64,000 nucleotides of DNA, taken from contig NC_083280.1 of NCBI RefSeq assembly GCF_963506605.1, positions 22,196,001 through 22,260,000 on the forward strand, written 5' to 3'. Shown one piece after another: positions 6,209 to 64,000 of the stretch; position 1 is the first letter of the stretch, and every line of letters begins with the position of its first letter. This DNA is from Zootoca vivipara (taxonomy: Eukaryota). The notes under the pieces are model-generated. The model saw nothing but the letters and a program-made list of their open reading frames with translations. It had not been told where the DNA came from and did no database searches. A program made the position numbers and the translations under genes.

Positions 6209-6279
6209 GTAAGGGGGACTTGTTGCCATTTTGCAGCCTGCACTGTGGTCTTCCAGATTTGTTGGTTTTATTATCAGGG

Positions 6280-13535: not shown

Positions 13536-15592
13536 CAAAAAGTAAAAAAGCTACCAAAGAGGACCAAGCACACCTGAAAGAAGCAGTCACCTCCTCTTCT
13601 CCTGAGAAAGATTTCTCATTTGCAAAGTTTGCATCTCCATTTAAAAGAGAGGCCATCGAAGCTGGCATTTATGTGAGCTCACCTGTGTATGAAAAGCCGG
13701 AAACCCTAGACTTTGCCATTGGGATAGCTGAAACCTATTTCTCCACCGAGTATTGGAAAAGTAATCTTTCCAGCGAGTCTGTTCAACCAAAGGAGGAACT
13801 TGAAAGGGACAAGAATGAAGGTATATGTTGCATGGGTCAAAAGGTCGATGATGCTCTATTTTGCAAAGAGAGAGAACTAGTAGCTGGAAATTCTCTTTCT
13901 CCAGGACAACAAGAAGTAACTAGCATTAGATCTCATGCAGTAGTAAATAGTACTATAACCAATTCCCCACTACCTGATGTATCTTCACCTACCTGTAGTG
14001 ATGTCCGTGACTTTCATTCCATACCAGCCATACAAGATAGTGACATTTCTCATCTGATCAGTGAGGTCTCTTTAACAGACGAGAGTGATGTGGGCAGTTC
14101 TGTCTCAGCACTGATAGGACAGTTTGATGTCACAAATGACCAGACTAAGTTGACTGTTGTTCCAAGTCCTCCTGGAATTAGCAAAAAGATTGACAATAGG
14201 AAGCCTGCACATGTACCACAGATGTCTCCAAGTGATCAGAATACATCTTTTGACCACAAGTCTCCTAGTGTAATGCCAAAAATTACTATGATATCAACCC
14301 CTCAGACAACAGAGTGTTCACTGTACACAATTATCCATGAGGCTTCGCTTTCTCCAGCCTCTCACCAAGCATCAATTGGCAAACCTCCTTGCAAGGACAC
14401 AACGTATGTTGAAGAAGATACTTGTCCGGTGTTTTCTTGCATTTCACCTGGGCTAAATGCAAGCACTAAAAGGAAGTGTGGAGCCAACTGGAACTCTCTT
14501 AGCAATAGCAACTCTTGCATCTCTGACAACTCAGATTTGGAACATACAATAGTTGTCCCTTTCACTTGTGTAAATTCTACAGGCAGCAGCCTAATGGAAG
14601 TTGATGGAGAGCTGCAGGACCTATTGATAACTGCCTATGAATATAAGAGAGAAGATATGAGCCAAGTTGCTTCTCCTCTGAAACTTAAGCATAATCAGGA
14701 CACTCTGTACTATGACAGTTCAGTCTGCAGAAACCTAACTAGTGAGGATCTCTCCAACACCAACCTACTTGAAGACTTCAAGTTCAGGAGCAAGAAGAAT
14801 CAATATCTTCCTTACCCAGAACATCAGTGTGTTGATCTTTTGTACCAAAATTATTTGCACATTTCAGACACCAAAAATGAATGGTTAAACATCTCTCCTA
14901 CAGGTAACATGGAGAACTCTCCTGCTCTTAAGCATTCTCTGCCTTCTCCCTCAGCTCAAAAACAACCAAGTCCTTGTAAATCCAAGAGCCTTGGAGACTT
15001 AACATCAGAAGACATCTCGTGCAATTTTGAAAGCAAGTACAAGTATATCAGCAGAGGTTTCATTACATCTGGCATGAGAGACAAGATGGTGACGGCTCTG
15101 AAGGCTAAGAGACCACAGGCTACAGATTCCCTGACGGAACAGTTACGAAAGCTAGTGTCCTTTGATCAGGAGGACAGCAGCTGCCAGTCATTTTGTAACA
15201 AGCAGGATGACGATTGCCCTAAAATGTTGGTCAGAAAACTGTCGTCCAGGAGTCAGAGCAGAGTGAGAAACATTGCTAGTCGTGCCAGGGAGCGACAAGA
15301 AGCCAATAAGCAGAAACTTTCTAATGCTAGCAGTAATGTAGCAGACATAGTCCTTAGAAATAAGCCTCTTGTCCCTCCTCACATTATCAATAGACATTCC
15401 ACTGGCTCTTACATAGCAAGCTATCTGGATAACTTCAATACAGACAATCTGGTGGACCGAGGGGTTCCGGAGGGTGCATGCACATCATTGCGCTATGCGT
15501 ACCATGACCGGTTTTATACAGATGACTCTCTTTTAGAGGCCAAGCCAAGCGAAGACGATAAACCAGAAATCTATTTTCTCCTGAGACTGTAA
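13536..15592 (+). CDS. PLCH1: PLCH1 terminal coding exon (long Ser-rich tail, ends …DDKPEIYFLLRL*)
   Basis: tatag| acceptor at 13535, in frame with ORF 13673-15592. Conserved blocks PSPCKSKSLGDLTSEDI, LTEQLRKLVSFDQED and LVRKLSSRSQSRVRNIASRA, plus the C-terminal PEIYFLLRL that I recognise as PLCH1. Confidence 0.93.
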
Positions 15593-20977: not shown

Positions 20978-21665
20978 GATCTAGGAGTCTTGGTAGACCA
21001 CAAACTCGACATGAGTCAACAGTGTGACGCAGTATGATGCAGCAGCTAAAAAAGCCAATGCAATTCTGGGCTGCATCAATAGGAGTATAGCATCTAGATC
21101 AAGGGAAGTAATAGTACCACTGTATTCTGCTCTGGTCAGACCTCACCTGGAGTACTGTGTCCAGTTCTGGGCACCACAGTTCAAGAAGGATACTGACAAG
21201 CTGGATCATGTCCAGAGGAGGGCAACCAAATTGGTCAAAGGCCTGGAAACAATGCCTTATGAGGAACAGCTTAGGGAGCTGGGTATGTTTAGCCTGGAGA
21301 AGAGAAGGTTAAGGGGTGATATGATAGCCATGTTCAAATATATAAAAGGATGTCATATAGAAGAGGGAGAAAGGTTGTTTTCTGCTGCTCCAGAGAAGCG
21401 GACACGGAGCAATGGATTCAAGCTACAAGAAAGAAGATTCCACCTAAACATTAGGAAGAACTTCCTGACAGTAAGAGCTGTTCGACAGTGGAATTTGCTG
21501 CCAAGGAGTGTGGTGGAGTCACCTTCTTTGGAGGTTTTTAAGCGGAGGCTTGACAGTCATCTGTCAGGAATGCTTTGATGGTGTTTCCTGCTTGGCAGGG
21601 GGTTGGACTGGATGGCCCTTGTGGTCTCTTCCAACTCTAGGATTCTATGGTTCTATTCTATGATT
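20978..21665 (+). mobile_element. CR1 LINE 3' fragment (RT C-terminus + 3' UTR)
   Basis: ORF 21024-21578 ([25 protein letters not shown]) and ATTCTATG-type terminal repeats. Confidence 0.95.
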
Positions 21666-43007: not shown

Positions 43008-43690
43008 TCATAGAATCCTAGAGTTGGAAGAGAGCACAAGGGCCATCCAGTCCAACCCCCTGCCAAGCAGGAAACACCACCAAAGCATTCTTGACATATG
43101 CCTGTCAAGCCTCTGCTTAAAGACCTCCAAAGAAGGAGACTCCACCACACTCCTTGGTAGCAAATTCCACTGCCGAACAGCTCTTACTGTCAGGAAGTTC
43201 TTCCTAATGTTTAGGTGGAATCTTCTTTCTTGTAGTTTGAATCCATTGCTCCGTGTCCGCTACCCTGGAGCAGCAGAAAACAACCTTTCTCCCTCCTCTA
43301 TATGACATCCTTTTATATATTTGAACATGGCTATCATATCACCCCTTAACCTTCTCTTCTGCAGGCTAAACATACCCAGCTCCCTAAGCCGTTCCTCATA
43401 AGGCATCGTTTCCAGGCCTTTGACCATTTTGGTTGCCCTCCTCTGGACACATTCCAGCTTGTCAATATTCTTCTTGAACTGTGGTGCCCAGAACTGGACA
43501 CAGTACTCCAGGTGAGGTCTGACCAGAGAAGAATACAGTGGTACTATTACTTCCCTTGATCTAGATGCTATACTCCCATTGATGCAGCCCAGAATTGCAT
43601 TGGCTTTTTTAGCTGCTACATCACACTGTTGACTCATGTCAAGTTTGTGGTCTACCAAGACTCCTAGATCCTTTTCACATGTACTGCTCT
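43008..43690 (-). mobile_element. CR1 LINE 3' fragment
   Basis: Highly similar to 20978-21665; EKDLGVLVD…LVRPHLEYC. Confidence 0.95.
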
Positions 43691-44592
43691 CAATTTGTTT
43701 TTCAACTCCTCCTGGGCACAATAGTCGCAGAATCTCAACAACAACAAATTTTTTTTGAGCTACTTTTAAGGATATTCGCCAGAAAATCAATACATCTGGG
43801 TTTTTTTGATATCGGGAATTCTGCCCGGACGCGATTTCCGACGGACGAATCCAAGATATGTCTGGGAAGTCCCAGACATACAACAGGGATACTGAACCCA
43901 GTAGGTCCAATGCCATCACCTTCTTGCCCCACTACTTCCACCCACAGAATTTCTAATTTTCAACCCTAGAACTGGCTATCACTGGTGGAAGAACCACCAG
44001 TGGTAGTTTTACACCCATGGAACTATTCAAGGGCCTAGCAGAGGTGTCTGTGGTAGATGTCCTCCTTCATTGACAAAACTATCTGTGGAGAGGCATCTTC
44101 ACTTCTTAAGCATCTGAAATCACTGTCACTGGTTCTGGGGAATTGGATTGCAGTGTTTATTTACTTGCAGATTTTGCTGGCTCTTCCACTACGTTCAAAG
44201 AGGTTTCCTACATCTTCTTCTGTGAAATATTTTTTTCCTGCCTCTGCAGGGAGATGATTGGCTTATGCTTATGTTTTAACTTTTTCTGTTGTCTGTGTCT
44301 AATTAAATCAGGAGAAAAGTGTTCAGACTTAATGGATGCAGTTATTAAGGTATTAATGTCTTGCTTTCCACTACAGAAGACATTTGAGACCCATGGTATG
44401 GGTGGTGCTAGCTTAGAGCAAGAGCATTATTCAATTCTGAAACTCCCTTGAATAACAAGTTCCTTCGCTGAGTTCCTTTAAACTTTGGTTTCGCCCTCAT
44501 CCGGGATTCTAAATACTCTGTTTCCTGATTTAATATACATTCTAAAGTCTGCTTTGTGAAATCCCAGGAACCTGCTTACAGCGTTGCTGAAC

Positions 44593-46168
44593 ATGAACTT
44601 GAAATTGACTTATCTTCTCCTAGCTCTATGCACAGCCATCATATTCATCTTGGTCTGGGCTTTCCAAAACAGAGGAGGGAAGCCCATGCTTTGCGACAGC
44701 CATCTTCAGGAGATGGGATGGGAGGAAAGAGGCCATGGAATCTACAGCCAGGTATTTGCTGATTTAACTCCGGAAGAGATCATGGAAGTGAAGATCTACC
44801 TGCAGTACAACCTGGGGGTGCCATTGGTAGAACCTCCTCAAGCCAAACCATCGGACAACTGCATTTTTTCTATCACCCTTCAGCTTCCTCCCAAAGCTGA
44901 AGTGCTGCAATTCTTGGACCACCAAGGGACCAGGCCCTCGCGGCAAGCTCTGGCTGTACTCCATTTTGGAAACCAGGAGCACCCAAATGTCACAGAGTTT
45001 GTGGTAGGTCCTCTTCCAAAGCCAACGTACCACCAAGATGTCACAGTGCAGAAGTATGGAGGGAAGTTGCCTTACTACAGAAGGTTTTTTTTGGAGAATG
45101 AGCTGAGAGAGATCCATACTTTCTTGAGGAATAGGGAATACCCCAAGGATCCAAACTTTATGCAGAAAGTGCTTTATTACAATGGAAGCAAGTATGGATA
45201 CTCCTATGGATTACCACCTGGACTAAAATCAGGAGACCGGAAAATCTGGGTTGCTCATTTCCAGAATGTCCCTGGTAGTTACCTGCATCCAGTAGGATTT
45301 GAAGTCCATATGGATCTCAGCAGCCTAGACGTTTCTCATTGGAAGGTGCTAAAAGTCTTCTATAATGGACAGTACTTTGAGGACATGGAAGATATTGAGA
45401 GACAATTCATTTCAGGACATGTTAAAGTAGCCAAGGTCAAAAAGGCTCCTTTGGATGGAGGCTATTCCTCACTGAAGCAGAGGGTTCCCCACCAGAGACT
45501 AGGCCCCTTGTACTATGAACCTCGTGGTCCCCGCTACCGCATCTGGAATAACCAGGTTTTCTTCATGTCCTGGAGTTTTGCCTTTGGCATAGATGCCAAT
45601 AGGGGGCCACGTATCTTTGATGTAAGGTTTAAGGGTGAGAGGATAGTTTATGAGTTAAGCTTGCAAGACGGAGGTTCCATCTATGGCTCCAACAATCCAG
45701 CGTCAATGCTGACCAGGTACATGGACTTAAGCTTTGGCATTGGTTCAAGTGGCTCCACTCTCACCCAAGGTGTGGATTGTCCTTACCTGGCTACTTATTT
45801 GGACAGGCACTATTTTCTTGATTCCTCGTTGCCTGTCACTCGCAAACACTCTATCTGCATCTTTGAGCAGAATGCTGAGGTCCCTGTGCGAAGACATTAT
45901 GACCGCTCAGAGCCTCCGTTTTACGGAGGGTTGGTCGATTCCGTTCTTGTCTTTAGGTCCATATCTTCAGTTGCTAATTATGATTATGTTTGGGATTTTA
46001 AATTTCATCAAAATGGAGCTGTTGGTGTTGCGATTCATGCAAGTGGGTACATTCAATCTGCTTTTTATTTTGGCGATGCCTTGGAATTTGGAAACAGAGT
46101 TGAAGAGTGGGCACTGGGAGACATTCACACTCACAACATTAATTTCAAGGTGGATATGGACATTGGTG
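44593..46168 (+). CDS. AOC3: AOC3/AOC2-like copper amine oxidase, first coding exon, copy 1 (divergent variant)
   Basis: N-terminal hydrophobic anchor, VFADLT, GLKSGDR, catalytic Asp in RYMD, TPQ motif NYDY and Cu-ligand HTH. Ends at DIG-G|gtaagt, the position of the AOC3 exon 1 boundary. Confidence 0.9.
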
Positions 46169-47074
46169 GTAAGTCTATGCCTCTTTTGTAACTTTTATGG
46201 ATTGCAGTGATTTCTATTGATGGTAGCGGCTGACTTGCTGCCAGCTAATAGCTGTTTTTTAAGTGGTTCTGAGGTTATTTTGTTTCCCAGTTCTGCAAAT
46301 GGACCCATTTTCATGTTCCATGGAGTATTCATGAGTATACGTTTTCCCACCTCACCTGGCAGAATGCTGCATCATCCTAAGATGCAGAAAATAGGTGAAG
46401 CGTGTGGTGTATGTGTAGGAGGGAATTGTTGTGTGAGAAAGTTTAGGCCGATTCTGGAACCTTGGAGACACAGAGGCATGTTCTGAACACAAGTTGTGTC
46501 AGGGTTTCCCCCCTGGATGCCTAATAGAGAAGCACAATCTGTTCGTGTGTTAATGCTGTGCACCCACCCATCCTATGCTCAGGTTCCATATATGTGTAAA
46601 TAAAACCATACATTCTATAGACATCACCATCTCCACTGACCTTCATTCCATGGAAACAGAACCCTGGGGAAGCGCTTGGCATTCATGGAGTCTCTCCTCA
46701 AAATAGGTCTTGAGGGAGGCAAATCCATGTCTGCTTCTAATTCATTCAATGAATTATGAATGCACATCATTGTCAAAGTATTATATGGGCCCTTTGGGGC
46801 AACCGGTTGAGCCCTGCATATTTTAAGACCAAGGTCCATCTAGTGGCAGGCAGGCGGCGGGGGCCGGTCACTTCACTTTTGGTAGTGGAACAGAGCAATA
46901 TTCACAGCAGGGTTAAAAGGCTTCCCATTGAATAGATTCGGGAGTGAAATTAAAACACAATAGTACATTCTGAGAGCATTTTGTTGTGATTACTTTATAT
47001 TAATCAGAGAAGTATATGCTCCTCAGAAATAGATGCACATGAGCTAATACATAATTGATGGAGATTGCCCCCAT

Positions 47075-47251
47075 CAGGGCAGTCTCGAGCAGGTCACGCG
47101 CCCTGGCGCTGAGGGGCGGAGATCGCTCCGGTGCCCCTACCCTCGCAGGGCGCAGTATGGCTTCCGCGCGGCTTTGCCGTGCAGCGCCCTGCCTACTGGC
47201 CTGGCGCCCTGGCGCCCCGCGCCACCAGGACTCTACCTAGAGCCGGCCCTG
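47075..47251. mobile_element. GC-rich hAT-type MITE
   Basis: cagggc…gccctg ends; TSD GCCCCCAT. Confidence 0.8.
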
Positions 47252-50115
47252 GCCCCCATGTAAGTTAGGTTCATTCATTTCAAGGGGTCTTCTCTGAGGA
47301 AATCTTAGTTTAATGCCAACCGTTGAACGCTACCTTGCTCTCTTTTTTATATGAACTACTTTTTCTCATCCATAGTCAATTTGTAGACATGATTTACCTA
47401 TTTAATTTGTCATGTTAAAGTCCCATCTTTCTTCCAAGATTAGGGGGTTGCACTAGATGACCCTCGGGGTCCCTTCCAGTTCTATGATTCTATGAAACTC
47501 AATCTAAATTGTGTACTTGGCATTCTGCAAAAATCTTCCGTCTAGCCACTTGACCAAGATCTCCCTCATTTTCCAGTAAGGGCTGCTTTGTTGCCATGGG
47601 CAGCCATCCAGGGAGGCCCGGGAGCCATGGGACCAGCCAGTAGCCAGGGCTGAAGCCTAAGGGTTGTATTCAGTGCAGAACAAAGGACATGCTAGACATC
47701 CGGGGCAAAGACCAAGACAACAACAAAGGACTAAACAAAAGAAGGGACTAAGGTGTAACCAGTAATACTGGGGCACACCAAAAGATCTTGTTATTTGAGC
47801 AAAGCTTAGCAAGAAATAGTCTTTCCTGTCCAGGATAACCCAATGGCTAGTTTGGAGTCAGCCCATGGCCTGAAGGTACTTCATTAAGAAACTCAGACTT
47901 GCCATTCAATGGTTCACCACATGGGAGTATTGCACCGAGATCGAGCAGTTCCTGACAATTACGTGTCTTCAGGTCATGTCTTGAGGAATCCATCCACTCT
48001 GCTTTCTCATTCAATTTTAGAGTAGCTGCTGTTTTAAAAAGAATTCAAATACTACTGCTTCTTTGGCTATGACCCCCTGAAATCCTGCTGATCCAGGACA
48101 ACAGAGAAGGATAAATCTCTTCTCCACATAAAATAGTTTCCTTTTATGGCGATGATTGTTTCCCACCAGAGGGTGGTAAAACCACTTGAGATCCGAACTG
48201 CCATTGAATTACATAAAGGCATACTATGCAGATTTCTTCACGACCTTTCAGAAGCTGTGAAAGTGCTAAGGGCACAATCCAAAGAAAGCTCTTGACTTTA
48301 ATGAAATCTAAGCATGAGTGTGCTGTCTCCATTGAAATCATCCAGCGGTCCTTTACCTCTTCCTTTGACCTTTACCTTTACCTATATGCACTGTAGATTT
48401 AAAGCACGTTTAAAGTATTTCCTTCCTCCCGAGGAATTCTGAGAGCTGTAGTTTGTTGTGGGTGCTGGGAAATGGTAGTTGAGATGGACAAACTACAGTT
48501 CTCAGGATTCTAAGTTAAGGCAGTGCCATGCTGCTTTCACTTTCCTCTTCTCAACTCAATCTTCCTCTGCCCCCCGGGGGATGTACATGACAAGATACTT
48601 TCATTCCCCCTGTATTGGAGTAAGATTCAACTGCCAATCAAACTGGCTTCAGCATGTGCTTTGGGGCTGGGTGCCATCTTGTCCTTCACCTCAGGCAGCG
48701 AAATGTCTTGAGCTGACCCTGCCACTCACGGGGCTTGTTAGGCGAATCTCACCCAGTGATTTGCCAGGATTCAATAAGTTAGCTACTTTTAATTTCTCAG
48801 CTCTGAATTCTGGCAACCTGTCCCTTGCAAATCTTGTTTTAAGCTGCAGGGCACAAGCAAAACCAGCCAGGTAACAATTCAAGAATTACCAGAACATCAA
48901 ACTTGCTGTGCCTTTCTCAGAAATTGTGTGGATAATTCAGTGGTTAATTAATTTAAGGCCAGTGCTATGCAGGCTTACTGACAAACACAGGACTCTTGCT
49001 GGCTAGTGTTTGGTGTCTCCTGATGCTTCCTTCCTTGCAGTCTCCTGCCTCTCTCTCAATGATCTTTGATGAACAGCCTTTCCCTCCCAACACATGACAT
49101 TCTCTCTGACCCAGATATTCAGCATATAAGGAAATTAGAGGCTCACTGCGCAGCTCAGCTTCAGTGTTTTCTCCAGTCCACAGAAGAATAGGACTGGAAA
49201 TGAAAATCAAGTGTAAATGCATGGAAGCCGATACGCAAGTCAAAACAACAGTGTGAGATCCACACCAGACATTTTAAGCACGATGATACCACTTGGACAG
49301 TTATAGAGAACCCTTGGAACTGATTTAGGATGGATCATAATAGCTCAGTGGTAGCACATCTCCACATAGGGCCGGAAGCAAATCTCCACCTGAGATTACT
49401 TATGCCAGCTCCAAGATGTTATATAGAGAAAGCCCCATTGTGGGCCTCTCTGTTGAATGAATGAGTCTTGAGCCTCCAGAATGTCTAATATTGAACCCTA
49501 AGAGTGCATGGTGGTGGTGAAAGAACCACTCTACATCCATGGAACAATTCACGGGCATAGCTGAGGTGTTTGTGGCAGACGTGCTCTTTCATTGGCAAAG
49601 CTCCGTCAATAGACAGGCACTTCCATACCCTCCTAACCAGCTCCAGTTACTGTTCTGAGGGTGTGGCCTCAGTAAAGTTAAGTGCTGCATCAGCTAGAAG
49701 ACTCAACCACTAGGAAGTTCTGCTTTTTTTCTTGCAAAGCTTCCTCTTCCAAACATTTTTTGCACCCTCTACATAAAGAAGATTGCTTAAGAGTGGTTTG
49801 TTGTATCTCGGTAGGCTGCATCTAACTCAATTAGGAACAAAGGTGTTCAGAGGACATGACATAACAGGTTATCAAGGCTTGAAGGAAAATATCACTGCAT
49901 TCCTATTTACAGAAACATTGAGCTGCATCATACCGTCGGTGGTTGCTTAGATGAAAAATATTACTGATGTTTTGAAGCTCACTTGCATAGCAGGTCTTTC
50001 CCCGAAACTTTGGTTTCACCCTCATCCGGGATTCAAATACTCTGTTTGCTGATTCAATCTGCATTCTACAGTCTGCTTTGTGAAATCCTAGGAGCCTGCT
50101 TACAGCGTTCTGAAC

Positions 50116-51691
50116 ATGAACATGAAATTGACTTATCTTCTTCTAGCTCTATGCACAGCCGTCATATTCATCTTGGTCTGGGCTTTCCAAAACAGAGGAG
50201 GGAAGGCCATGCTTTGTGACAGCCATCTCCAGGAGATGGGACTGGAAGAAAGAGGCCATGGAATCTACAGCCAGGTATTTGCTGATTTAACTCCGGAAGA
50301 GATCATGGAAGTGAAGATCTACCTGCAATACAACCTGGGGGTGCCATTGGTAGAACCTCCTCAAGCCAAGCCATCGGACAACTGCATTTATTCTATCACC
50401 CTTCAGCTTCCTCCCAAAGCTGAAGTGCTGCAATTCTTGGACCACCAAGGGACCAGGCCCTCGCGGCAAGCTCTGGCTGTACTCCATTTTGGAAACCAGG
50501 AGGACCCAAATGTCACAGAGTTTGTGGTAGGTCCTCTTCCAAAACCAATGTACCACCAAGATGTCACAGTGCAGAAGTATGGAGGGAAGTTGCCTTACTA
50601 CAAAAGGTTTTTCTTAAACAATGAGTTCAAAGAAATCCTTAATTTCCTGAAGAACAAAGAATACCCCAAGGCTCCAAACTTTATGCAGAAAGTACTATAT
50701 TACAATGGAAGCAATCTCAGAAACTTCCGTGCATTACCACCTGGACTAAAATCAGGAGACCGGAGAATCTGGGTTGCTCATTTCCAGAATGTCCCTGGTA
50801 GTTACCTGCATCCAGTAGGATTTGAAGTCCATGTGGATCTCAGCAGCCTAGACGTTTCTCATTGGAAGGTGCTAAAAGTCTTCTATAATGGACAGTACTT
50901 TGAGGACATGGACGATATTGAGAGACAGTTCATTACGGGACATGTTAAAGTAGCCAAGGTCAAAAAGGCTCCTTTGGATGGAGGCTATTCCTCACTGAAG
51001 CAGAGGGTTCCCCACCAGAGACTAGGCCCCTTGCACTATGAACCTCGTGGTCCCCGCTACCGCATCTGGAATAACCAGGTTTTCTTCATGTCCTGGAGTT
51101 TTGCCTTTGGCATAGATGCCAATAGGGGGCCACACATCTTTGATGTAAGGTTTAAGGGTGAGAGGATAGTTTATGAGTTAAGCTTGCAAGATGCATCTGC
51201 CATCTATGGCTCCAACACTCCAGCGGCAATGTTGAACAGATTCATGGACCTAAGCATTGGCATTGGTTCAAGTGGCTCCACTCTCATCCAAGGTGTGGAT
51301 TGTCCTTACCTGGCTACTTATTTGGACAGGCACTATTTTCTTGATTCCTCGTTGCCTGTCACTCGCAAAAACTCTATCTGCATCTTTGAGCAGAATGCTG
51401 AGGTCCCTGTGCGACGCCATTATGACCGCTCAGAGCCTCCGTTTTACGGAGGGTTGGTCGATTCTGCTCTGGTCTTCAGGTCCATATCTACAGTTGGTAA
51501 TTATGATTATATTTGGGATTTCATGTTTCATCAAAATGGAGCTGTTGGTGTTGCGATCCATGCAAGTGGGTACATTCAATCTGCTTTTTACTTTGGTGAT
51601 GCCTTGGAATTTGGAAACAGAGTTGAAGAGTGGACATTGGGAACAATTCACACTCACAACATTAATTTCAAGGTGGATATGGACATTGGTG
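50116..51691 (+). CDS. AOC3: AOC3/AOC2-like amine oxidase first coding exon, copy 2
   Basis: Intact 525-codon frame with GNYDY and IHTH. Donor g|gtaagt at 51692. Confidence 0.9.
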
Positions 51692-51826
51692 GTAAGTCTA
51701 TGCCTCTTTTGTAATTTTTATGGATTGCAGTGTTTTCTATTGCTGGTAAGTGGATGTCTCTTTTGTGACTTTTCTGTGCCTGTTTGTGGCTTGCTTGCTT
51801 GCTGACAACTTATAGCCCATACAGAA

Positions 51827-52315
51827 AGAATCATAGAATCATAGAATGGGGGACTTGGAAGTGACTCCAAGGGTCCTCTAGTCCAACCCCCTGTAATGCA
51901 GGAGCCAAAGCTATTTAATCCCTGACAAGTGGTCCTCCAACTTCTGTTTTAAAACCTTCAAGGAAGGAGAGCCCCCCAACTTTCAAGATGGTGCATTGAA
52001 CTGTTGAACATCTACTCTCAAGAAATTCTTCCCATTGTTTATCCATAATCGCCTTTCCTGTAATTTGAATTCATTGGTTTGTTTCCTATCCTTTGGAGTA
52101 CCAGAAAACAAGCTTTCTGCATCCTCCATGTGACAGCCCTTCAGATACTTTTAAGAAGGCTATCGTATCTTCTCTATGTCTCCTTTCTTCCAGGGTAAAC
52201 CTATCCAACTCCCTCAACCATTCCTCATAAGCCTTGGTTTCCAGACCCTTGATCATCTTCATTGCTCTGCTCTGCACACATTCCAGTTGTCAATGTCCTC
52301 CTTAAACTGTTGCTC
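51827..52315 (-). mobile_element. Older CR1 3' fragment, co-duplicated in every tandem unit (also ~55550-56038, ~59273-59760, ~62984-63465)
   Basis: agaatcatagaatcat tail; degenerate QSRAMKMIKGLE…YEEWLREL. Confidence 0.85.
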
Positions 52316-53838
52316 CTTAAAATATGTTTTCCTTGTTACGGTTTACACAAACAGCTTACCAGTTACTTCCTTTTCATGCCACTCTCTCTGCCAAGAGCAA
52401 TGGAAAAACAGGCATTCAAGGCTCAGGGAACAACAGTTTGCAGGACACCTGAGCTGCTGCTCGTCTCCAACACTTGGAGTTTGCTACCACAGACATAGAT
52501 TTTGGGCTGTCCTGAAGCCAAGTACAGCTTTCGGCCTGTAGGTATTCTTGTGACTTGTATGTTTATAGAATCTGCAATCTCTTGAGATTTCCGCAACAGA
52601 CTCACTCATTCTGTGTAAGGCCAGGTGGGAGAGGCTGGAGCTGATGCCTTGCTGTGCCTTTCTCAGAAATTGTGTGGATAATTCAGTGGTTAATTAATTT
52701 AAGGCCAGTGCTATGCAGGCTTACTGACAAACACAGGACTCTTGCTGGCTAGTGTTTGGTGTCTCCTGATGCTTCCTTCCTTGCAGTCTCCTGCCTCTCT
52801 CTCAATGATCTTTGATGAACAGCCTTTCCCTCCCAACACATGACATTCTCTCTGACCCAGATATTCAGCATATAAGGAAATTAGAGGCTCACTGCGCAGC
52901 TCAGCTTCAGTGTTTTCTCCAGTCCACAGAAGAATAGGACTGGAAATGAAAATCAAGTGTAAATGCATGGAAGCCGATACGCAAGTCAAAACAACAGTGT
53001 GAGATCCACACCAGACATTTTAAGCACGATGATACCACTTGGACAGTTATAGAGAACCCTTGGAACTGATTTAGGATGGATCATAATAGCTCAGAGGTAG
53101 AACATCTCCACCTGAGATTACTTATGCCAGCTCCAAGCTGTTATATAGAGAAAGCCCCATTGTGGGCCTCTCTGTTGAATGAATGAGTCTTGAGCCTCCA
53201 GAATGTCTAATACTGAACCCTAAGAGTGCATGGTGGTGGTGAAAGAACCACTCTACATCCATGGAACAATTCACGGGCATAGCTGAGGTGTTTGTGGCAG
53301 ACGTGCTCTTTCATTGGCAAAGCTCCGTCAATAGACAGGCACTTCCATACCCTCCTAACCAGCTCCAGTCACTGTTCTGAGGGTGTGGCCTAAGTAAAGT
53401 TAAGTGCTGCATCAGCTAGAAGACTCAACCACTAGGAAGTTCTGCTTTTTTTTCTTGCAAAGCTCCCTCTTCCAAACATTTTTTGCACCCTCTACATAAA
53501 GAAGATTGCTTAAGAGTGGTTTGTTGTATCTTGGTAGGCTGCATCTAACTCAATTAGGAACAAAGGTGTTCAGAGGACATGACATATCAGGTTATCAAGG
53601 CTTGAAGGAAAATATCACTGCCTTCCTCTTTACAGAAACATTGAGCTGCATCATACCGTCGGTGGTTGCTTAGATGAAAAATATTACTGAGGTTTTGAAG
53701 CTCACTTGCATAGCAGGTCTTTTCCCGAAACTTTGGTTTCACCCTCATCCGGGATTCAAATACTCTGTTTGCTGATTCAATCTGCATTCTACAGTCTGCT
53801 TTGTGAAATCCTAGGAGCCTGCTTACAGCGTTCTGAAC

Positions 53839-55414
53839 ATGAACATGAAATTGACTTATCTTCTTCTAGCTCTATGCACAGCCGTCATATTCATCTTGGT
53901 CTGGGCTTTCCAAAACAGAGGAGGGAAGGCCATGCTTTGTGACAGCCATCTCCAGGAGATGGGACTGGAAGAAAGAGGCCATGGAATCTACAGCCAGGTA
54001 TTTGCTGATTTAACTCCGGAAGAGATCATGGAAGTGAAGATCTACCTGCAATACAACCTGGGGGTGCCATTGGTAGAACCTCCTCAAGCCAAGCCATCGG
54101 ACAACTGCATTTATTCTATCACCCTTCAGCTTCCTCCCAAAGCTGAAGTGCTGCAATTCTTGGACCACCAAGGGACCAGGCCCTCGCGGCAAGCTCTGGC
54201 TGTACTCCATTTTGGAAACCAGGAGGACCCAAATGTCACAGAGTTTGTGGTAGGTCCTCTTCCAAAACCAATGTACCACCAAGATGTCACAGTGCAGAAG
54301 TATGGAGGGAAGTTGCCTTACTACAAAAGGTTTTTCTTAAACAATGAGTTCAAAGAAATCCTTAATTTCCTGAAGAACAAAGAATACCCCAAGGCTCCAA
54401 ACTTTATGCAGAAAGTACTATATTACAATGGAAGCAATCTCAGAAACTTCCGTGCATTACCACCTGGACTAAAATCAGGAGACCGGAGAATCTGGGTTGC
54501 TCATTTCCAGAATGTCCCTGGTAGTTACCTGCATCCAGTAGGATTTGAAGTCCATGTGGATCTCAGCAGCCTAGACGTTTCTCATTGGAAGGTGCTAAAA
54601 GTCTTCTATAATGGACAGTACTTTGAGGACATGGACGATATTGAGAGACAGTTCATTACGGGACATGTTAAAGTAGCCAAGGTCAAAAAGGCTCCTTTGG
54701 ATGGAGGCTATTCCTCACTGAAGCAGAGGGTTCCCCACCAGAGACTAGGCCCCTTGCACTATGAACCTCGTGGTCCCCGCTACCGCATCTGGAATAACCA
54801 GGTTTTCTTCATGTCCTGGAGTTTTGCCTTTGGCATAGATGCCAATAGGGGGCCACGTATCTTTGATGTAAGGTTTAAGGGTGAGAGGATAGTTTATGAG
54901 TTAAGCTTGCAAGATGCATCTGCCATCTATGGCTCCAACACTCCAGCGGCAATGTTGAACAGATTCATGGACCTAAGCATTGGCATTGGTTCAAGTGGCT
55001 CCACTCTCATCCAAGGTGTGGATTGTCCTTACCTGGCTACTTATTTGGACAGGCACTATTTTCTTGATTCCTCGTTGCCTGTCACTCGCAAAAACTCTAT
55101 CTGCATCTTTGAGCAGAATGCTGAGGTCCCTGTGCGACGCCATTATGACCGCTCAGAGCCTCCGTTTTACGGAGGGTTGGTCGATTCTGCTCTGGTCTTC
55201 AGGTCCATATCTACAGTTGGTAATTATGATTATATTTGGGATTTTATGTTTCATCAAAATGGAGCTGTTGGTGTTGCGATCCATGCAAGTGGGTACATTC
55301 AATCTGCTTTTTACTTTGGTGATGCCTTGGAATTTGGAAACAGAGTTGAAGAGTGGACATTGGGAACAATTCACACTCACAACATTAATTTCAAGGTGGA
55401 TATGGACATTGGTG
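53839..55414 (+). CDS. AOC3: AOC3/AOC2-like amine oxidase first coding exon, copy 3
   Basis: Intact and nearly identical to copy 2 (GPRIF vs GPHIF). Same donor. Confidence 0.9.
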
Positions 55415-57561
55415 GTAAGTCTATGCCTCTTTTGTAATTTTTATGGATTGCAGTGTTTTCTATTGCTGGTAAGTGGATGTCTCTTTTATGACTTTTCTGT
55501 GCCTGTTTGTGGCTTGCTTGCTTGCTGACAGCTTATAGCCCATACAGAAAGAATCATAGAATCATAGAATGGGGGACTTGGAAGTGACTCCAAGGGTCCT
55601 CTAGTCCAACCCCCTGTAATGCAGGAGCCAAAGCTATTTAATCCCTGACAAGTGGTCCTCCAACTTCTGTTTTAAAACCTTCAAGGAAGGAGAGCCCCCC
55701 AACTTTCAAGATGGTGCATTGAACTGTTGAACATCTACTCTCAAGAAATTCTTCCCATTGTTTATCCATAATCGCCTTTCCTGTAATTTGAATTCATTGG
55801 TTTGTTTCCTATCCTTTGGAGTACCAGAAAACAAGCTTTCTGCATCCTCCATGTGACAGCCCTTCAGATACTTTTAAGAAGGCTATCGTATCTTCTCTAT
55901 GTCTCCTTTCTTCCAGGGTAAACCTATCCAACTCCCTCAACCATTCCTCATAAGCCTTGGTTTCCAGACCCTTGATCATCTTCATTGCTCTGCTCTGCAC
56001 ACATTCCAGTTGTCAATGTCCTCCTTAAACTGTTGCTCCTTAAAATATGTTTTCCTTGTTACGGTTTACACAAACAGCTTACCAGTTACTTCCTTTTCAT
56101 GCCACTCTCTCTGCCAAGAGCAATGGAAAAACAGGCATTCAAGGCTCAGGGAACAACAGTTTGCAGGAAACCTGAGCTGCTGCTCGTCTCCAACACTTGG
56201 AGTTTGCTACCACAGACATAGATTTTGGGCTGTCCTGAAGCCAAGTACAGCTTTCGGCCTGTAGGTATTCTTGTGACTTGTATGTTTATAGAATCTGCAA
56301 TCTCTTGAGATTTCCGCAACAGACTCACTCATTCTGTGTAAGGCCAGGTGGGAGAGGCTGGAGCTGATGCCTTGCTGTGCCTTTCTCAGAAATTGTGTGG
56401 ATAATTCAGTGGTTAATTAATTTAAGGCCAGTGCTATGCAGGCTTACTGACAAACACAGGACTCTTGCTGGCTAGTGTTTGGTGTCTCCTGATGCTTCCT
56501 TCCTTGCAGTCTCCTGCCTCTCTCTCAATGATCTTTGATGAACAGCCTTTCCCTCCCAACACATGACATTCTCTCTGACCCAGATATTCAGCATATAAGG
56601 AAATTAGAGGCTCACTGCGCAGCTCAGCTTCAGTGTTTTCTCCAGTCCACAGAAGAATAGGACTGGAAATGAAAATCAAGTGTAAATGCATGGAAGCCGA
56701 TACGCAAGTCAAAACAACAGTGTGAGATCCACACCAGACATTTTAAGCACGATGATACCACTTGGACAGTTATAGAGAACCCTTGGAACTGATTTAGGAT
56801 GGATCATAATAGCTCAGAGGTAGAACATCTCCACCTGAGATTACTTATGCCAGCTCCAAGCTGTTATATAGAGAAAGCCCCATTGTGGGCCTCTCTGTTG
56901 AATGAATGAGTCTTGAGCCTCCAGAATGTCTAATACTGAACCCTAAGAGTGCATGGTGGTGGTGAAAGAACCACTCTACATCCATGGAACAATTCACGGG
57001 CATAGCTGAGGTGTTTGTGGCAGACGTGCTCTTTCATTGGCAAAGCTCCGTCAATAGACAGGCACTTCCATACCCTCCTAACCAGCTCCAGTCACTGTTC
57101 TGAGGGTGTGGCCTAAGTAAAGTTAAGTGCTGCATCAGCTAGAAGACTCAACCACTAGGAAGTTCTGCTTTTTTTTCTTGCAAAGCTCCCTCTTCCAAAC
57201 ATTTTTTGCACCCTCTACATAAAGAAGATTGCTTAAGAGTGGTTTGTTGTATCTTGGTAGGCTGCATCTAACTCAATTAGGAACAAAGGTGTTCAGAGGA
57301 CATGACATATCAGGTTATCAAGGCTTGAAGGAAAATATCACTGCCTTCCTCTTTACAGAAACATTGAGCTGCATCATACCGTCGGTGGTTGCTTAGATCA
57401 AAAATATTACTGAGGTTTTGAAGCTCACTTGCATAGCAGGTCTTTTCCCGAAACTTTGGTTTCACCCTCATCCGGGATTCAAATACTCTGTTTGCTGATT
57501 CAATCTGCATTCTACAGTCTGCTTTGTGAAATCCTAGGAGCCTGCTTACAGCGTTCTGAAC

Positions 57562-59137
57562 ATGAACATGAAACTGACTTATCTTCTTCTAGCTCTATGC
57601 ACAGCCGTCATATTCATCTTGGTCTGGGCTTTCCAAAACAGAGGAGGGAAGGCTATGGTTTGTGACAGCCATCTTCAGGAGATGGGACTGGAAGAAAGAG
57701 GCCATGGAATCTACAGCCAGGTATTTGCTGATTTAACTCCGGAAGAGATCATGGAAGTGAAGATCTACCTGCAATACAACCTGGGGGTGCCATTGGTAGA
57801 ACCTCCTCAAGCCAAGCCATCGGACAACTGCATTTATTCTATCACCCTTCAGCTTCCTCCCAAAGTTGAAGTGCTGCAATTCTTGGACCACCAAGGGACC
57901 AGGCCCTCGCGGCAAGCTCTGGCTGTACTCCATTTTGGAAACCAGGAGGACCCAAATGTCACAGAGTTTGTGGTAGGTCCTCTTCCAAAGCCAATGTACC
58001 ACCAAGATGTCACAGTGCAGAAGTATGGAAGGAAGTTGCCTTACTACAAAAGGTTTTTCTTAAACAATGAGTTCAAAGAAATCCTTAATTTCCTAAAGAA
58101 CAAAGAATACCCCAAGGCTCCAAACTTTATGCAGAAAGTACTATATTACAATGGAAGCAATCTCAGAAACTTCCGTGCATTACCACCTGGACTAAAATCA
58201 GGAGACCGGAGAATCTGGGTTGCTCATTTCCAGAATGTCCCTGGTAGTTACCTGCATCCAGTAGGATTTGAAGTCCATGTGGATCTCAGCAGCCTAGACG
58301 TTTCTCATTGGAAGGTGCTAAAAGTCTTCTATAATGGACAGTACTTTGAGGACATGGACGATATTGAGAGACAGTTCATTACGGGACATGTTAAAGTAGC
58401 CAAGGTCAAAAAGGCTCCTTTGGATGGAGGCTATTCCTCACTGAAGCAGAGGGTTCCCCACCAGAGACTAGGCCCCTTGCACTATGAACCTCGTGGTCCC
58501 CGCTACCGCATCTGGGATAACCAGGTTTTCTTCATGTCCTGGAGTTTTGCCTTTGGCATAGATGCCAATAGGGGGCCACACATCTTTGATGTAAGGTTTA
58601 AGGGTGAGAGGATAGTTTATGAGTTAAGCTTGCAAGATGCATCTGCCATCTATGGCTCCAACACTCCAGCGGCAATGTTGAACAGATTCATGGACCTAAG
58701 CATTGGCATTGGTTCAAGTGGCTCCACTCTCATCCAAGGTGTGGATTGTCCTTACCTGGCTACTTATTTGGACAGGCACTATTTTCTTGATTCCTCATTG
58801 CCTGTCACTCATAAAAACTCTATCTGCATCTTTGAGCAGAATGCTGAGGTCCCTGTGCGACGCCATTATGACCGCTCAGAGCCTCCGTTTTACGGAGGGT
58901 TGGTCGATTCTGCTCTGGTCTTCAGGTCCATATCTACAGTTGGTAATTATGATTATATTTGGGATTTCATGTTTCATCAAAATGGAGCTGTTGGTGTTGC
59001 GATCCATGCAAGTGGGTACATTCAATCTGCTTTTTACTTTGGTGATGCCTTGGAATTTGGAAACAGAGTTGAAGAGTGGACATTGGGAACAATTCACACT
59101 CACAACATTAATTTCAAGGTGGATATGGACATTGGTG
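57562..59137 (+). CDS. AOC3: AOC3/AOC2-like amine oxidase first coding exon, copy 4
   Basis: Intact, with private changes (AMVC, PKVEV, VTHKN). Same donor. Confidence 0.9.
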
Positions 59138-61277
59138 GTAAGTCTATGCCTCTTTTGTAATTTTTATGGATTGCAGTGTTTTCTATTGCTGGTAAGTGGA
59201 TGTCTCTTTTGTGACTTTTCTGTGCCTGTTTGTGGCTTGCTTGCTTGCTGACAACTTATAGCCCATACAGAAAGAATCATAGAATCATAGAATGGGGGAC
59301 TTGGAAGTGACTCCAAGGGTCCTCTAGTCCAACCCCCTGTAATGCAGGAGCCAAAGCTATTTAATCCCTGACAAGTGGTCCTCCAACTTTTGTTTTAAAA
59401 CCTTCAAGGAAGGAGAGCCCCCCAACTTTCAAGATGGTGCATTGAACTGTTGAACATCTACTCTCAAGAAATTCTTCCCATTGTTTAGCCATAATCGCCT
59501 TTCCTGTAATTTGAATTCATTGGTTTGTTTCCTATCCTTTGGAGTACCAGAAAACAAGCTTTCTGCATCCTCCATGTGACAGCCCTTCAGATACTTTTAA
59601 GAAGGCTATCGTATCTTCTCTATGTCTCCTTTCTTCCAGGGTAAACCTATCCAACTCCCTCAACCATTCCTCATAAGCCTTGGTTTCCAGACCCTTGATC
59701 ATCTTCATTGCTCTGCTCTGCACACATTCCAGTTGTCAATGTCCTCCTTAAACTGTTGCTCCTTCTTAAAATATGTTTTCCTTGTTACGGTTTACACGAA
59801 CAGCTTACCAGTTACTTCCTTTTCATGCCACTCTCTCTGCCAAGAGCAATGGAAAAACAGGCATTCAAGGCTCAGGGAACAACAGTTTGCAGGAAACCTG
59901 AGCTGCTGCTCGTCTCCAACACTTGGAGTTTGCTACCACAGACATAGATTTTGGGCTGTCCTGAAGCCAAGTACAGCTTTCGGCCTGTAGGTATTCTTGT
60001 GACTTGTATGTTTATAGAATCTGCAATCTCTTGAGATTTCAGCAACAGACTCACTCATTCTGTGTAAGGCCAGGTGGGAGAGGCTGGAGCTGATGCCTTG
60101 CTGTGCCTTTCTCAGAAATTGTGTGGATAATTCAGTGGTTAATTTAAGGCCAGTGCTATGCAGGCTTACTGACAAACACAGGACTCTTGCTGGCTAGTGT
60201 TTGGTGTCTCCTGGTGCTTCCTTCCTTGCAGTCTCCTGCCTCTCTCTCTATGATCTTTGATTAACAGCCTTTCCCTCCCAACACATGACATTCTCTCTGA
60301 CCTAGATATTCAGCATATAAGGAAATTAGAGGCTCACTGCGCAGCTCAGCTTCAGTGTTTTCTCCAGTCCACAGAAGAATAGGACTGGAAATGAAAATCA
60401 AGTGTAAATGCATGGAAGCCGATACGAAAACAACAGTGTGAGATCCACACCAGACATTTTAAGCACGATGATACCACTTGGACAGTTATAGAGAACCCTT
60501 GGAACTGATTTAGGATGGATCATAATAGCTCAGAGGTAGAACATCTCCACCTGAGATTACTTATGCCAGCTCCAAGCTGTTATATAGAGAAAGCCCCATT
60601 GTGGGCCTCTCTGTTGAATGAATGAGTCTTGAGCCTCCAGAATGTCTAATACTGAACCCTAAGAGTGCATGGTGGTGGTGAAAGAACCACTCTACATCCA
60701 TGGAACAATTCACGGGCATAGCTGAGGTGTTTGTGGCAGACGTGCTCTTTCATTGGCAAAGCTCCGTCAATAGACAGGCACTTCCATACCCTCCTAACCA
60801 GCTCCAGTTACTGTTCTGAGGGTGTGGCCTCAGAAAAGTTAAGTGCTGCATCAGCTAGAAGACTCAACCACTAGGAAGTTCTGCTTTTTTTTCTTGCAAA
60901 GCTTCCTCTTCCAAACATTTTTTGCACCCTCTACATAAAGAAGATTGCTTAAGAGTGGTTTGTTGTATCTCGGTAGGCTGCGTCTAACTCAATTAGGAAC
61001 AAAGGTGTTCAGAGGACATGACATATCAGGTTATCAAGGCTTGAAGGAAAATATCACTGCATTCCTATTTACAGAAACATTGAGCTGCATCATACCGTCG
61101 GTGGTTGCTTAGATCAAAAATATTACTGAGGTTTTGAAGCTCACTTGCATAGCAGGTCTTTTCCCGAAACTTTGGTTTCACCCTCATCCGGGATTCAAAT
61201 ACTCTGTTTGCTGATTCAATCTGCATTCTACAGTCTGCTTTGTGAAATCCTAGGAGCCTGCTTACAGCGTTCTGAAC

Positions 61278-62853
61278 ATGAACATGAAATTGACTTATCT
61301 TCTTCTAGCTCTATGCACAGCCGTCATATTCATCTTGGTTTGGGCTTTCCAAAACAGAGGAGGGAAGGCCATGCTTTGTGACAGCCATCTTCAGGAGATG
61401 GGACTGGAAGAAAGAGGCCATGGAATCTACAGCCAGGTATTTGCTGATTTAACTCCGGAAGAGATCATGGAAGTGAAGATCTACCTGCAATACAACCTGG
61501 GGGTGCCATTGGTAGAACCTCCTCAAGCCAAGCCATCGGACAACTGCATTTATTCTATCACCCTTCAGCTTCCTCCCAAAGCTGAAGTGCTGCAATTCTT
61601 GGACCACCAAGGGACCAGGCCCTCGCGGCAAGCTCTGGCTGTACTCCATTTTGGAAACCAGGAGGACCCAAATGTCACAGAGTTTGTGGTAGGCCCTCTT
61701 CCAAAACCAATGTACCACCAAGATGTCACAGTGCAGAAGTATGGAAGGAAGTTGCCTTACTACAAAAGGTTTTTCTTAAACAATGAGTTCAAAGAAATCC
61801 TTAATTTCCTGAAGAACAAAGAATACCCCAAGGCTCCAAACTTTATGCAGAAAGTACTATATTACAATGGAAGCAATCTCAGAAACTTCCGTGTGTTACC
61901 ACCTGGACTAAAATCAGGAGACCGGAAAATCTGGGTTGCTCATTTCCAGAATGTCCCTGGTAGTTACCTGCATCCAGTAGGATTTGAAGTCCATGTGGAT
62001 CTCAGCAGCCTAGACGTTTCTCATTGGAAGGTGCTAAAAGTCTTCTATAATGGACAGTACTTTGAGGACATGGACGATATTGAGAGACAGTTCATTACGG
62101 GACATGTTAAAGTAGCCAAGGTCAAAAAGGCTCCTTTGGATGGAGGCTATTCCTCACTGAAGCAGAGGGTTCCCCACCAGAGACTAGGCCCCTTGCACTA
62201 TGAACCTCGTGGTCCCCGCTACCGCATCTGGGATAACCAGGTTTTCTTCATGTCCTGGAGTTTTGCCTTTGGCATAGATGCCAATAGGGGGCCACACATC
62301 TTTGATGTAAGGTTTAAGGGTGAGAGGATAGTTTATGAGTTAAGCTTGCAAGATGCATCTGCCATCTATGGCTCCAACACTCCAGCGGCAATGTTGAACA
62401 GATTCATGGACCTAAGCATTGGCATTGGTTCAAGTGGCTCCACTCTCATCCAAGGTGTGGATTGTCCTTACCTGGCTACTTATTTGGACAGGCACTATTT
62501 TCTTGATTCCTCGTTGCCTGTCACTCGCAAAAACTCTATCTGCATCTTTGAGCAGAATGCTGAGGTCCCTGTGCGACGCCATTATGACCGCTCAGAGCCT
62601 CCGTTTTACGGAGGGTTGGTCGATTCTGCTCTGGTCTTCAGGTCCATATCTACAGTTGGTAATTATGATTATATTTGGGATTTTATGTTTCATCAAAATG
62701 GAGCTGTTGGTGTTGCGATCCATGCAAGTGGGTACATTCAATCTGCTTTTTACTTTGGCGATGCCTTGGAATTTGGAAACAGAGTTGAAGAGTGGACATT
62801 GGGAACAATTCACACTCACAACATTAATTTCAAGGTGGATATGGACATTGGTG
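61278..62853 (+). CDS. AOC3: AOC3/AOC2-like amine oxidase first coding exon, copy 5
   Basis: Intact, with changes FRVLP and DRKIW. Same donor. Confidence 0.9.
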
Positions 62854-64000
62854 GTAAGTCTATGCCTCTTTTGTAATTTTTATGGATTGCAGTGTTTTCT
62901 ATTGCTGGTAAGTGGATGTCTCTTTTGTGACTTTTCTGTGCCTGTTTGTGGCTTGCTTGCTGACAGCTTATAGCCCATACAGATAGAATCATGGAATGGG
63001 GGACTTGGAAGTGACTCCAAGGGTCCTCTAGTCCAACCCCCTGTACTGCAGGAGCCAAAGCTATTTAATCCCTGACAAGTGGTCCTCCAACTTCTGTTTT
63101 AAAACCTTCAAGGAAGGAGAGCTCACCAGCTTTCAAGATGGTGCATTGAACTGTTGAACATCTACTCTCAAGAAATTCTCCCCATTGTTTAGTCATGATC
63201 TCCTTTCCTGTAATTTGAATCCATTGGTTTGTTTCCTATCCTCTGAAGCACCAGAAAACAAGCTTTCTGCATCCTCCATGTGACAGCCTTTCAGATACTT
63301 GTAAGAAGGCTATCGTATCTTCTCTATGTCTCCTTTCTTCCAGGGTAAATATATCCAACTCCATCAACCATTCCCCATAAGCCTTGGTTTCCAGACCCTT
63401 GATCATCTTCATTGCTCTGCTCTGCACACATTCCAGTTGTCAATGTCCTCCTTAAACTGTTGCTCCTTCTTAAAATATGTTTTCCTTGTTACGGTTTACA
63501 CAAACAGCTTACCAGAAGTTACTTCCTTTTCATACCACTCTCTCTGCCAAGAGCAATGGAAAAACAGGCATTCAAGGCTCAGGGAACAATAGTTTGCAGG
63601 ACACCTGAGCTGCTGCTCGTCTCCAACACTTGGAGTTTGCTACCACAGACATAGATTTTGGGCTGTCCTGAAGCCAAGTACAGCTTTCGGCCTGTAGGTA
63701 TTCTTGTGACTTGTATGTTTATAGAATCTGCAATCTCTTGAGATTTCAGCAACAGACTCACTCATTCTGTGTAAGGCCAGGTGGGAGAGGCTGGAGCTGA
63801 TGCCTTGCTGTGCCTTTCTCAGAAATTGTGTGGATAATTCAGTGGTTAATTTAAGGCCAGTGATATGCAGGCTTACTGACCAACACAGGACTCTTGCTGG
63901 CTACTGTTTGGTGTCTCCTGATGCTTACTTCCTTGCAGTCTCCTGCCTCTCTCTCTATGATCTTTGATTAACAGCCTTTCCCTCCCAACACATGACATTC

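Follow-up and report, generated by a model that had tools for sequence, protein, structure and literature searches.

Probable framework homogenisation and diverged, predicted channel patches in an array of amine oxidase first exons in Zootoca vivipara

How can two copies of an exon be nearly identical, even at silent sites, when the DNA beside them has drifted far apart? The question is raised by a 64,000-nucleotide stretch of the Zootoca vivipara assembly (G000; contig NC_083280.1, positions 22,196,001 to 22,260,000), hereafter the window, to which all coordinates without a prefix refer. It carries tandem copies of a copper amine oxidase first exon, of which copy 1 occupies 44593-46168. An initial annotation, made from the window alone, had read the pattern as an old duplication followed by exon-restricted gene conversion that spares specificity patches. 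Our analysis makes it probable that the locus is an array of seven amine oxidase first exons derived from an old duplication, in which the framework has been homogenised, patches of the substrate channel have been kept by selection, and copy 1 is a hybrid. Repeated rounds of gene conversion, or of unequal crossover, likely made the framework uniform, and it is likely that selection kept different short patches that are predicted to line the substrate channel.

The first-exon array

The copy 1 exon matches the Pfam families PF02727, PF02728 and PF01179, corresponding to the N2, N3 and catalytic domains, and its coding span comprises N2, N3 and the first half of the catalytic domain. It can be aligned to hVAP-1/AOC3 (PDB 1pu4) with E=1e-147 and has the catalytic set intact: D378, N462-Y463-D464 with Y463 as the topaquinone (TPQ) residue, H512 and H514; the third copper histidine presumably lies in the shared exons. 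By its domains and catalytic motifs the exon is that of a copper amine oxidase of the AOC2/3 type, with predicted activity. Its nearest named proteins, among the matches listed, come from Zootoca vivipara, Podarcis and Lacerta.

A genome search found seven tandem copies of exon 1 on C5 of G000 and one set of exons 2-4, which lies outside the window at G000:C5:22269844-22272215 and starts 3.6 kb past copy 7. The reading frame is open in 7/7 copies, and the catalytic residues are intact in the copies tabulated. All seven share the donor G/GTAAGT (the slash marks the splice point), in phase 1 and in frame with exon 2. The locus thus combines tandem homologous first exons, each with an in-phase donor for the first constant exon, with a single set of constant exons, i.e. 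a variable-first-exon layout. Copies 2-7 form 3.7 kb units that are 96-99% identical, and copy 1 is the outlier. Databases list the upstream exons as separate truncated genes of ~500-550 amino acids (aa), which is likely an annotation error.

Flanks, framework and patches

Upstream of the exon, 43945-44478 aligns to 49477-50003 in front of copy 2 with 354/495 columns identical (71.5%; z=20.5, all z-scores being taken against 100 dinucleotide shuffles), which confirms the loose homology noticed initially from motifs that we located at 44013-44053 and 49535-49575. The accompanying statement that the rest of the upstream region barely aligns is too pessimistic: ~650 bp before the ATG align, made up of 530 bp of homologous sequence and a last 114 bp in which 103/112 positions are identical (92%). 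Farther upstream, 43400-43944 has no homology (z=-0.1). Downstream, similarity had been said to collapse ~50 bp past the donor; homology indeed ends 57 bp after it, and past 46225 copies 1 and 2 are no more alike than shuffles (z=-0.7). Homogenisation is not confined to the exon, as had been supposed, but reaches 114 bp to its 5' side and 57 bp into the intron.

Within the exon, copies 1 and 2 differ at 88/1575 nucleotides, with a synonymous divergence (dS, NG86 method) of 0.109 (95% confidence interval 0.073-0.152) and a nonsynonymous divergence (dN) of 0.045, in keeping with the near-identity first noted for coding and silent sites. The longest identical run of copy 1 is 112 nt against copy 2 and 157 nt against copy 3. 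Simulated evolution with indels, matched to the alignment score, puts flank divergence between copies 1 and 2 at ~0.4 substitutions per site. The initial annotation had named equality of exon dS and flank divergence as the outcome that would speak against conversion; the two are clearly unequal, silent exon mismatch being 35/340 and flank mismatch 141/495 (Fisher P=9e-11). With a dS of 0.057 in the framework (defined below) against ~0.4 in the flank, silent divergence is far below the age of the duplication. Copies 2 and 6 present the reverse pattern, the exon being more diverged (37 differences) than the flanks (~2%), as would be expected if patches had been imported.

The age of the duplication can be read from a related species, organism B, represented by contigs of runs X13 and X14 (two studies) and of X15, which is RNA by guess; contigs were taken from those among the 31 longest of ~22,650 pieces with at least 80% likeness. 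Organism B contigs cover the upstream flanks of copies 1 and 2 separately, with ~8-10% mismatch. The orthologous flanks differ at 86/875, 42/469, 23/276 and 29/281 letters, compared with 141/495 between the paralogous flanks. The orthologue of the 43945-44478 flank is ~9-10% diverged, and the spacer at 46226-48901 is also covered. Since each flank has its own orthologue at ~0.1 while the flanks stand ~0.4 apart, they split well before the two species, and the duplication of copies 1 and 2 is old, as proposed. These separate orthologues count against a recent duplication of the exon only, by birth and death, with patches made later by fast positive selection. Such a history would fit the recent units 2-7 (96-99% identical), it equally predicts the grouping of paralogs by species in 8/8 non-lacertid lizards described below, and UGT1 evolves in this way according to the part of PMC1885805 drawn on here. 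We regard it as very improbable, given also that patch types are common to different genera (P0121, P0126) and that patches are enriched in silent changes.

Lacertids were kept out of the definition of the patches, which uses differences between paralogs of one species in up to 14 other squamates, on an alignment of 67 sequences (3 G000 copies and 64 database proteins, from searches one of which listed 120 of 540 matches). This divides aa 51-525 into 144 patch codons and 331 framework codons. For copies 1 and 2 the patches have a dS of 0.229 and the framework one of 0.057, with a framework dN of 0.028, and purely synonymous codon differences number 15/114 in patches and 9/306 in the framework (P=2e-4). 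The corresponding values for copies 1 and 6 are 0.307 and 0.065, with 21/110 and 10/307 synonymous codon differences (P=6e-7). Patch dS (0.23-0.31) thus approaches flank divergence. A Sawyer-like permutation using all sites gives P=0.0005. The G+C content at third codon positions is 0.50-0.52 in the framework and 0.42-0.43 in patches, a difference that carries no significance figure and is confounded by amino-acid make-up.

The low framework dN (0.028), the likeness of the constant exons between species (14/710 letters differ) and a Sawyer-like test that loses significance on silent sites would suit an explanation that dispenses with conversion, with strong purifying selection acting also on silent sites while the flanks drift. 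As a control, the unconverted exon-1 paralogs of a second cluster, on C13, stand at dS 1.4-1.7, and silent sites in exon 1 are therefore free to diverge. Constraint is also incompatible with framework residues that are specific to a genus and common to its paralogs, and identity reaches 92-95% in non-coding DNA too, over the 114 bp on the 5' side and the 57 bp of intron. Purifying selection alone is largely refuted and in our judgement scarcely tenable.

To relate the patches to the protein, 15 channel or pocket residues of hVAP-1 were taken from the part of PMC7144023 used here and mapped via sequence alignment to hVAP-1. Of these positions, 13/15 fall inside patches (P=1e-5). Copies 1 and 2 differ at 10/15 of them, namely the equivalents of F173, Y176, L177, D180, T210, M211, T212, Y384, F389 and L469, against 42/475 overall (P=6e-8). 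In non-lacertid squamates the mean paralog difference is 0.56 at channel positions and 0.17 otherwise (P=8e-9). The catalytic Asp, the TPQ motif and the copper histidines are invariant among the 24 lizard rows listed. The spared patches of the initial proposal are thus supported by the enrichment of silent changes in them and by their match to substrate-channel positions. In mammalian amine oxidases, channel residues set subtype specificity, as stated in the parts of PMC7144023 and PMC12058724 consulted, and from the human enzyme we infer that patch changes would alter substrate preference.

Separately, the colubrid paralogs P0041 (Thamnophis), P0029 (Pituophis) and P0031 (Ahaetulla) carry Asn in place of the catalytic Asp, and Leu replaces one copper histidine; they form a lineage predicted to be inactive and kept across species. 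The gecko protein P0050 (Heteronotia) has Gln in place of the TPQ tyrosine.

A probable hybrid copy 1 and possible copy-number variation

Type A is represented by P0122 and P0121, type C by P0002 and P0126, and sites that distinguish the two types in both genera were taken as diagnostic. Up to aa 246 copy 1 has the type A state at 13/14 of these sites, and from aa 360 the type C state at 19/20, with a single switch from A to C inside a near-identical tract of ~340 bp. Copy 1 combines two old exon types, as a hybrid, and is not one old paralog. The simplest reading of its origin, and a likely one, is that an unequal crossover removed the DNA lying between the A and C exons. Searches of G000, which set a lower bound, found neither an intact A-type exon elsewhere nor a third promoter-like flank. 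Mosaics also occur in other copies and species: copies 2 and 6 of G000 are mosaic, Podarcis muralis combines A-like P2/P2b with D-like P3/P4, and Lacerta agilis has C-like P2/P2b.

Run X6, which has the same species label and comes from another individual, joins the copy 1 flank to the exon start with 3 differences. An X6 contig at 45874-46171 has 43 differences, where the G000 copies have 18-21, and the depth of single-copy flanks; by difference count and depth it is as expected for the 3' half of an A-type exon. One collapsed high-depth contig spans 45350-45668. Over 43700-50060 the depth in X6 is 101-108 in the framework and 35-38 in the flank, a hint of ~3 exon copies per haploid genome compared with 7 in G000, and hence of copy-number variation, although summed contig depth is a weak measure that gives no copy number.

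The same X6 results can be turned around. Suppose that conversion is real but that assembly errors, by mis-joining or over-expansion across near-identical tracts, produced the hybrid copy 1 and some of the seven copies; then a depth of ~3 copies, a diverged 3' half absent from G000 and a hybrid junction that no read spans would all be accounted for. The array units, however, carry distinct substitutions and indels, with up to 48 exon differences, mosaics recur in P. muralis and L. agilis, and the shared tract is just ~340 bp long; we hold this possibility to be rather unlikely. Three letters of the copy 1 exon, at 45149, 45282 and 45717, are replaced by another letter in all contigs of four read runs and are private haplotype variants or assembly errors.

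The features of the window are collected in the table. Each array unit has, after a 54-bp intron tail, a second donor-like sequence (51739-51816 in unit 2), which aligns to the copy 1 exon end and intron start at 46162-46252 (score 71.5, shuffle maximum 46.5). This donor-like sequence also agrees with the tail that the type-A protein P0122 gains by read-through; it may be the footprint of a misaligned conversion end. An inverted repeat pair at 43009-43670 and 20978-21649 is 94.5% identical over 672 bp, and an older relative occurs in every array unit (51839-52310 etc., 71%).

Table. Positions of copy 1, its subdivisions and the array units in the window
Positions	Strand	Feature	Details
43945..44478	+	Old type-A flank upstream of copy 1; candidate region for a promoter	71.5% identical to 49477-50003; one match in G000
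44479..44592	+	Homogenised 5' proximal sequence, likely 5' untranslated region (UTR)	92% identical to copy 2
44593..46168	+	Copy 1, AOC3-like copper amine oxidase first exon	525 codons + 1 nt; donor in phase 1, frame continuing into exon 2
45073..45138	+	Patch P1, type A	aa 161-182; hVAP-1 F173/Y176/L177/D180 equivalents
45169..45315	+	Patches P2 + P2b, type A	aa 193-210, 217-241; T210/M211/T212/F227 equivalents
45331..45669	+	Near-identical framework tract holding the A-to-C switch	switch ~45415-45609 by two Zootoca types only
45667..45768	+	Patch P3, type C	aa 359-392; Y384/F389/Y394 equivalents around the catalytic base
45883..46125	+	Patch region P4, type C	aa 431-511; includes L468/L469 gate equivalents
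46169..46225	+	Homogenised intron tail, including the GT donor	54/57 identical to copies 2-7
46226..48901	.	Spacer, copy 1 to array	no paralog besides repeat fragments; orthologue in organism B
48902..52647	+	Array unit 2, type B exon	3.7 kb; coding sequence (CDS) 50116-51691
52648..56370	+	Array unit 3	CDS 53839-55414
56371..60096	+	Array unit 4	CDS 57562-59137
60097..63803	+	Array unit 5	CDS 61278-62853
63804..64000	+	Array unit 6, beginning only	rest of unit 6 and unit 7 past the window end

Other lizards, use of the exons and known systems

For a comparison across genera, four Zootoca/Podarcis protein quartets were assembled and their sites labelled as grouping by species or by paralog. 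Most sites that group by species are found at aa 65-145, 179 and 287, whereas those that group by paralog occupy aa 168-181, 201-207, 234-246, 360-387 and 451-510. The labels cluster along the exon in 4/4 quartets (P<5e-5, <5e-5, 0.018 and 0.00015), and the contrast between patches and framework gives P=0.006, 0.007, 0.04 and 0.11. The lacertid quartets thus switch phylogeny along the exon, converted tracts following species and the remainder following orthology. Framework residues common to paralogs within a species and different between the genera are found at aa 79, 113, 116, 129, 143, 145, 179 and 287. Patch types, in turn, are shared across genera: P1 of copy 1 is 1 aa different from P. 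lilfordi P0121, and P3/P4 are 1-2 aa different from P. raffonei P0126. The comparison with related lizards that the initial annotation had called for therefore shows framework residues tending to follow species and patches tending to follow paralog. In framework trees (62/67 rows; Croc_b, Sphaerodactylus, Eublepharis, Anolis_c and ZvO_532b omitted), paralogs group by species in 8/8 non-lacertid lizards with at least two copies, and in distant squamates the patch tree, built with FastTree, also puts many paralogs together by species (Lerista, Anolis, Hemicordylus), so that trees of this depth cannot tell conversion apart from duplication within lineages and are not taken as proof.

As to use of the exons, Zootoca isoforms in the databases share one C-terminus (233/233) although their first exons differ, as do isoforms of A. 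carolinensis (3), A. sagrei (4) and Paroedura (5), with 0/232 differences, all of these being predicted models. A contig of X15 joins exons 1-2-3-4 at GT..AG; its exon-1 part has 32/825 differences to the C-type 3' half of copy 1 and 54/822 to that of copy 7. An X15 contig aligns from 44480 onward. Two further X15 joints, at L014 1988-2244 and 2270-6194, rest on 21-27 letters, maybe from C13 paralogs, and were disregarded. An organism B contig also skips 72 bases with non-canonical ends (AA..TG) in the 3' UTR at L014:8526-8599, likely a species indel. A distinct promoter for copy 1, another element of the initial proposal, is plausible because its flank has its own orthologue in another species, and 43945-44478 is the candidate.

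The upstream copies might instead be unused spares or be driven by read-through from the upstream gene, with patch diversity reflecting largely neutral shuffling. The absence of exon-1 reads from three RNA runs (given below) would agree with this, and linked transcription is suggested by the A. carolinensis amine oxidase isoforms P0014, P0149 and P0152, which the database names PLCH1 isoforms X8-X10; the names suggest read-through or exons shared with the upstream gene. The 7/7 open frames with intact catalytic residues in the copies tabulated, the concentration of variation at channel positions in non-lacertid squamates (P=8e-9) and the use of several first exons among database isoforms speak against it, and we consider it quite unlikely. 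As for the upstream gene itself, the open reading frames at 6083-6475, 10781-11161 and 13526-15589 may be PLCH1 3' exons, judging by motifs and by the Anolis database names; searches of it gave 0 families in Pfam and only a chance hit in PDB.

Several results weigh against the proposed reading of the array. The Sawyer-like permutation is not significant for silent third positions alone (P=0.074), nor are statistics on the longest run (P=0.21 and 0.11). Across two tracts of framework, copy 1 and copy 2 are separated by 13/599 differences, copy 1 and organism B contigs by 26/599, a contrast of only P=0.049 with contigs that can be assigned to no copy, and the upper confidence limit of framework dS (0.093) nearly equals the orthologue flank divergence. 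The framework tree pairs P. lilfordi type A with Zootoca type A, weakly (support 65); homogenisation is therefore partial, mostly at aa 51-160. In four Anolis carolinensis/A. sagrei quartets the framework stays orthologous, species-grouping sites numbering 1/19, 4/9, 1/17 and 0/9, none significant. Among three RNA runs of the same species label (X21-X23; ~6% of each, tissue unknown) we found no exon-1 reads and no copy 1 transcript; one read crosses the exon 2-3 joint. The hybrid itself may be an assembly mis-join across the near-identical tract, whose junction no read spans. Given the Anolis result, strong concerted evolution looks lacertid and not universal, and such lineage-dependent homogenisation would resemble the conversion of protocadherin (Pcdh) genes, which varies by lineage (PMC1852091, PMC2764143).

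Under the conversion account, conversion would persist only where selection at the protein level preserved homology, i.e. in the exon with ~110 bp on its 5' side and 57 bp on its 3' side, while indels and inserted repeats would have freed the flanks from it. Selection would remove any conversion that overwrites a channel patch, and linked silent sites would stay diverged alongside. Every exon would have a promoter of its own, and its transcript would be spliced to the shared exons, yielding isoforms with different amine preferences.

Noonan, in 2004, reportedly described protocadherin variable exons with regional gene conversion. The lizard array shares with Pcdh the tandem large first exons and shared constant exons (fugu, PMC1852091; anole, PMC2764143) and, as far as the cited parts of these papers go, regional homogenisation that includes silent sites, spares the specificity region and varies in strength by lineage. 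Unlike Pcdh, it encodes an enzyme rather than an adhesion code, has 3-7 copies, alternates several short spared patches with converted tracts where the Pcdh parts cited describe one 5'/3' boundary, and has hybrid exons that recombine patch types. With UGT1A, GCNT2 and UGT2A it has in common alternative first exons and a shared C-terminal part, the hypervariable regions forming the substrate pocket (PMC1885805, in part). In that paper, Li & Wu state that conversion does not predominate in Ugt1 as it does in Pcdh; UGT1 evolves by birth and death with little conversion except in dog a7-a11, whereas the lacertid framework is homogenised. Of the two precedents named initially, protocadherin therefore holds for conversion, and UGT1 for layout and hypervariable pocket but not for conversion.

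Like mammalian AOC3/VAP-1, AOC2 and AOC4 (PDB 1pu4, 1tu5), the array has the N2-N3-catalytic order, with the catalytic Asp, TPQ motif and two copper histidines in exon 1. Unlike the mammalian AOC genes, it draws variety from alternative first exons and not from whole genes, and it belongs to a separate reptile clade on C5, 51-56% identical to the AOC2/3-like cluster on C13. That cluster (G000:C13:9973934-10012252; L006-L010) has three exon-1 copies but exons 2-4 only twice; its first two copies of exon 1 (~69% nucleotide identity, dS 1.6) lie ahead of one shared set, and it is a second, unconverted alternative-first-exon arrangement. Snake paralog pairs differ throughout, also towards the C-terminus, where 170-201 of 204-233 residues are identical, which fits duplication of whole genes better than alternative first exons.

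Few vertebrate variable-first-exon clusters have been described, namely Pcdh, UGT1, GCNT2 and UGT2a in the portion of PMC1885805 cited. A literature search, with supplements and most subscription journals outside its scope, found no paper on the amine oxidase array, and the terms 'exon' and 'lizard' are absent from PMC12058724. New here are the evidence for conversion with retained patches and the hybrid exon; the underlying mechanism was already known.

The array joins a UGT1-like enzyme pocket with Pcdh-like conversion and visible shuffling of active-site patches. More tentatively, the lacertid array may act as a recombinational generator of enzyme specificity, in which the framework keeps copies recombining, four or five selected ancient patch sets predate the Zootoca-Podarcis split, and unequal crossovers remix patches and copy number, such that individuals would differ in repertoire. 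If copy 1 is truly a hybrid, recombination could use such exons to put together new enzyme specificities. Through their natural variation the patches point to positions thought to set copper amine oxidase specificity, and the array offers a natural small panel for testing determinants of substrate and inhibitor selectivity in VAP-1-type enzymes.

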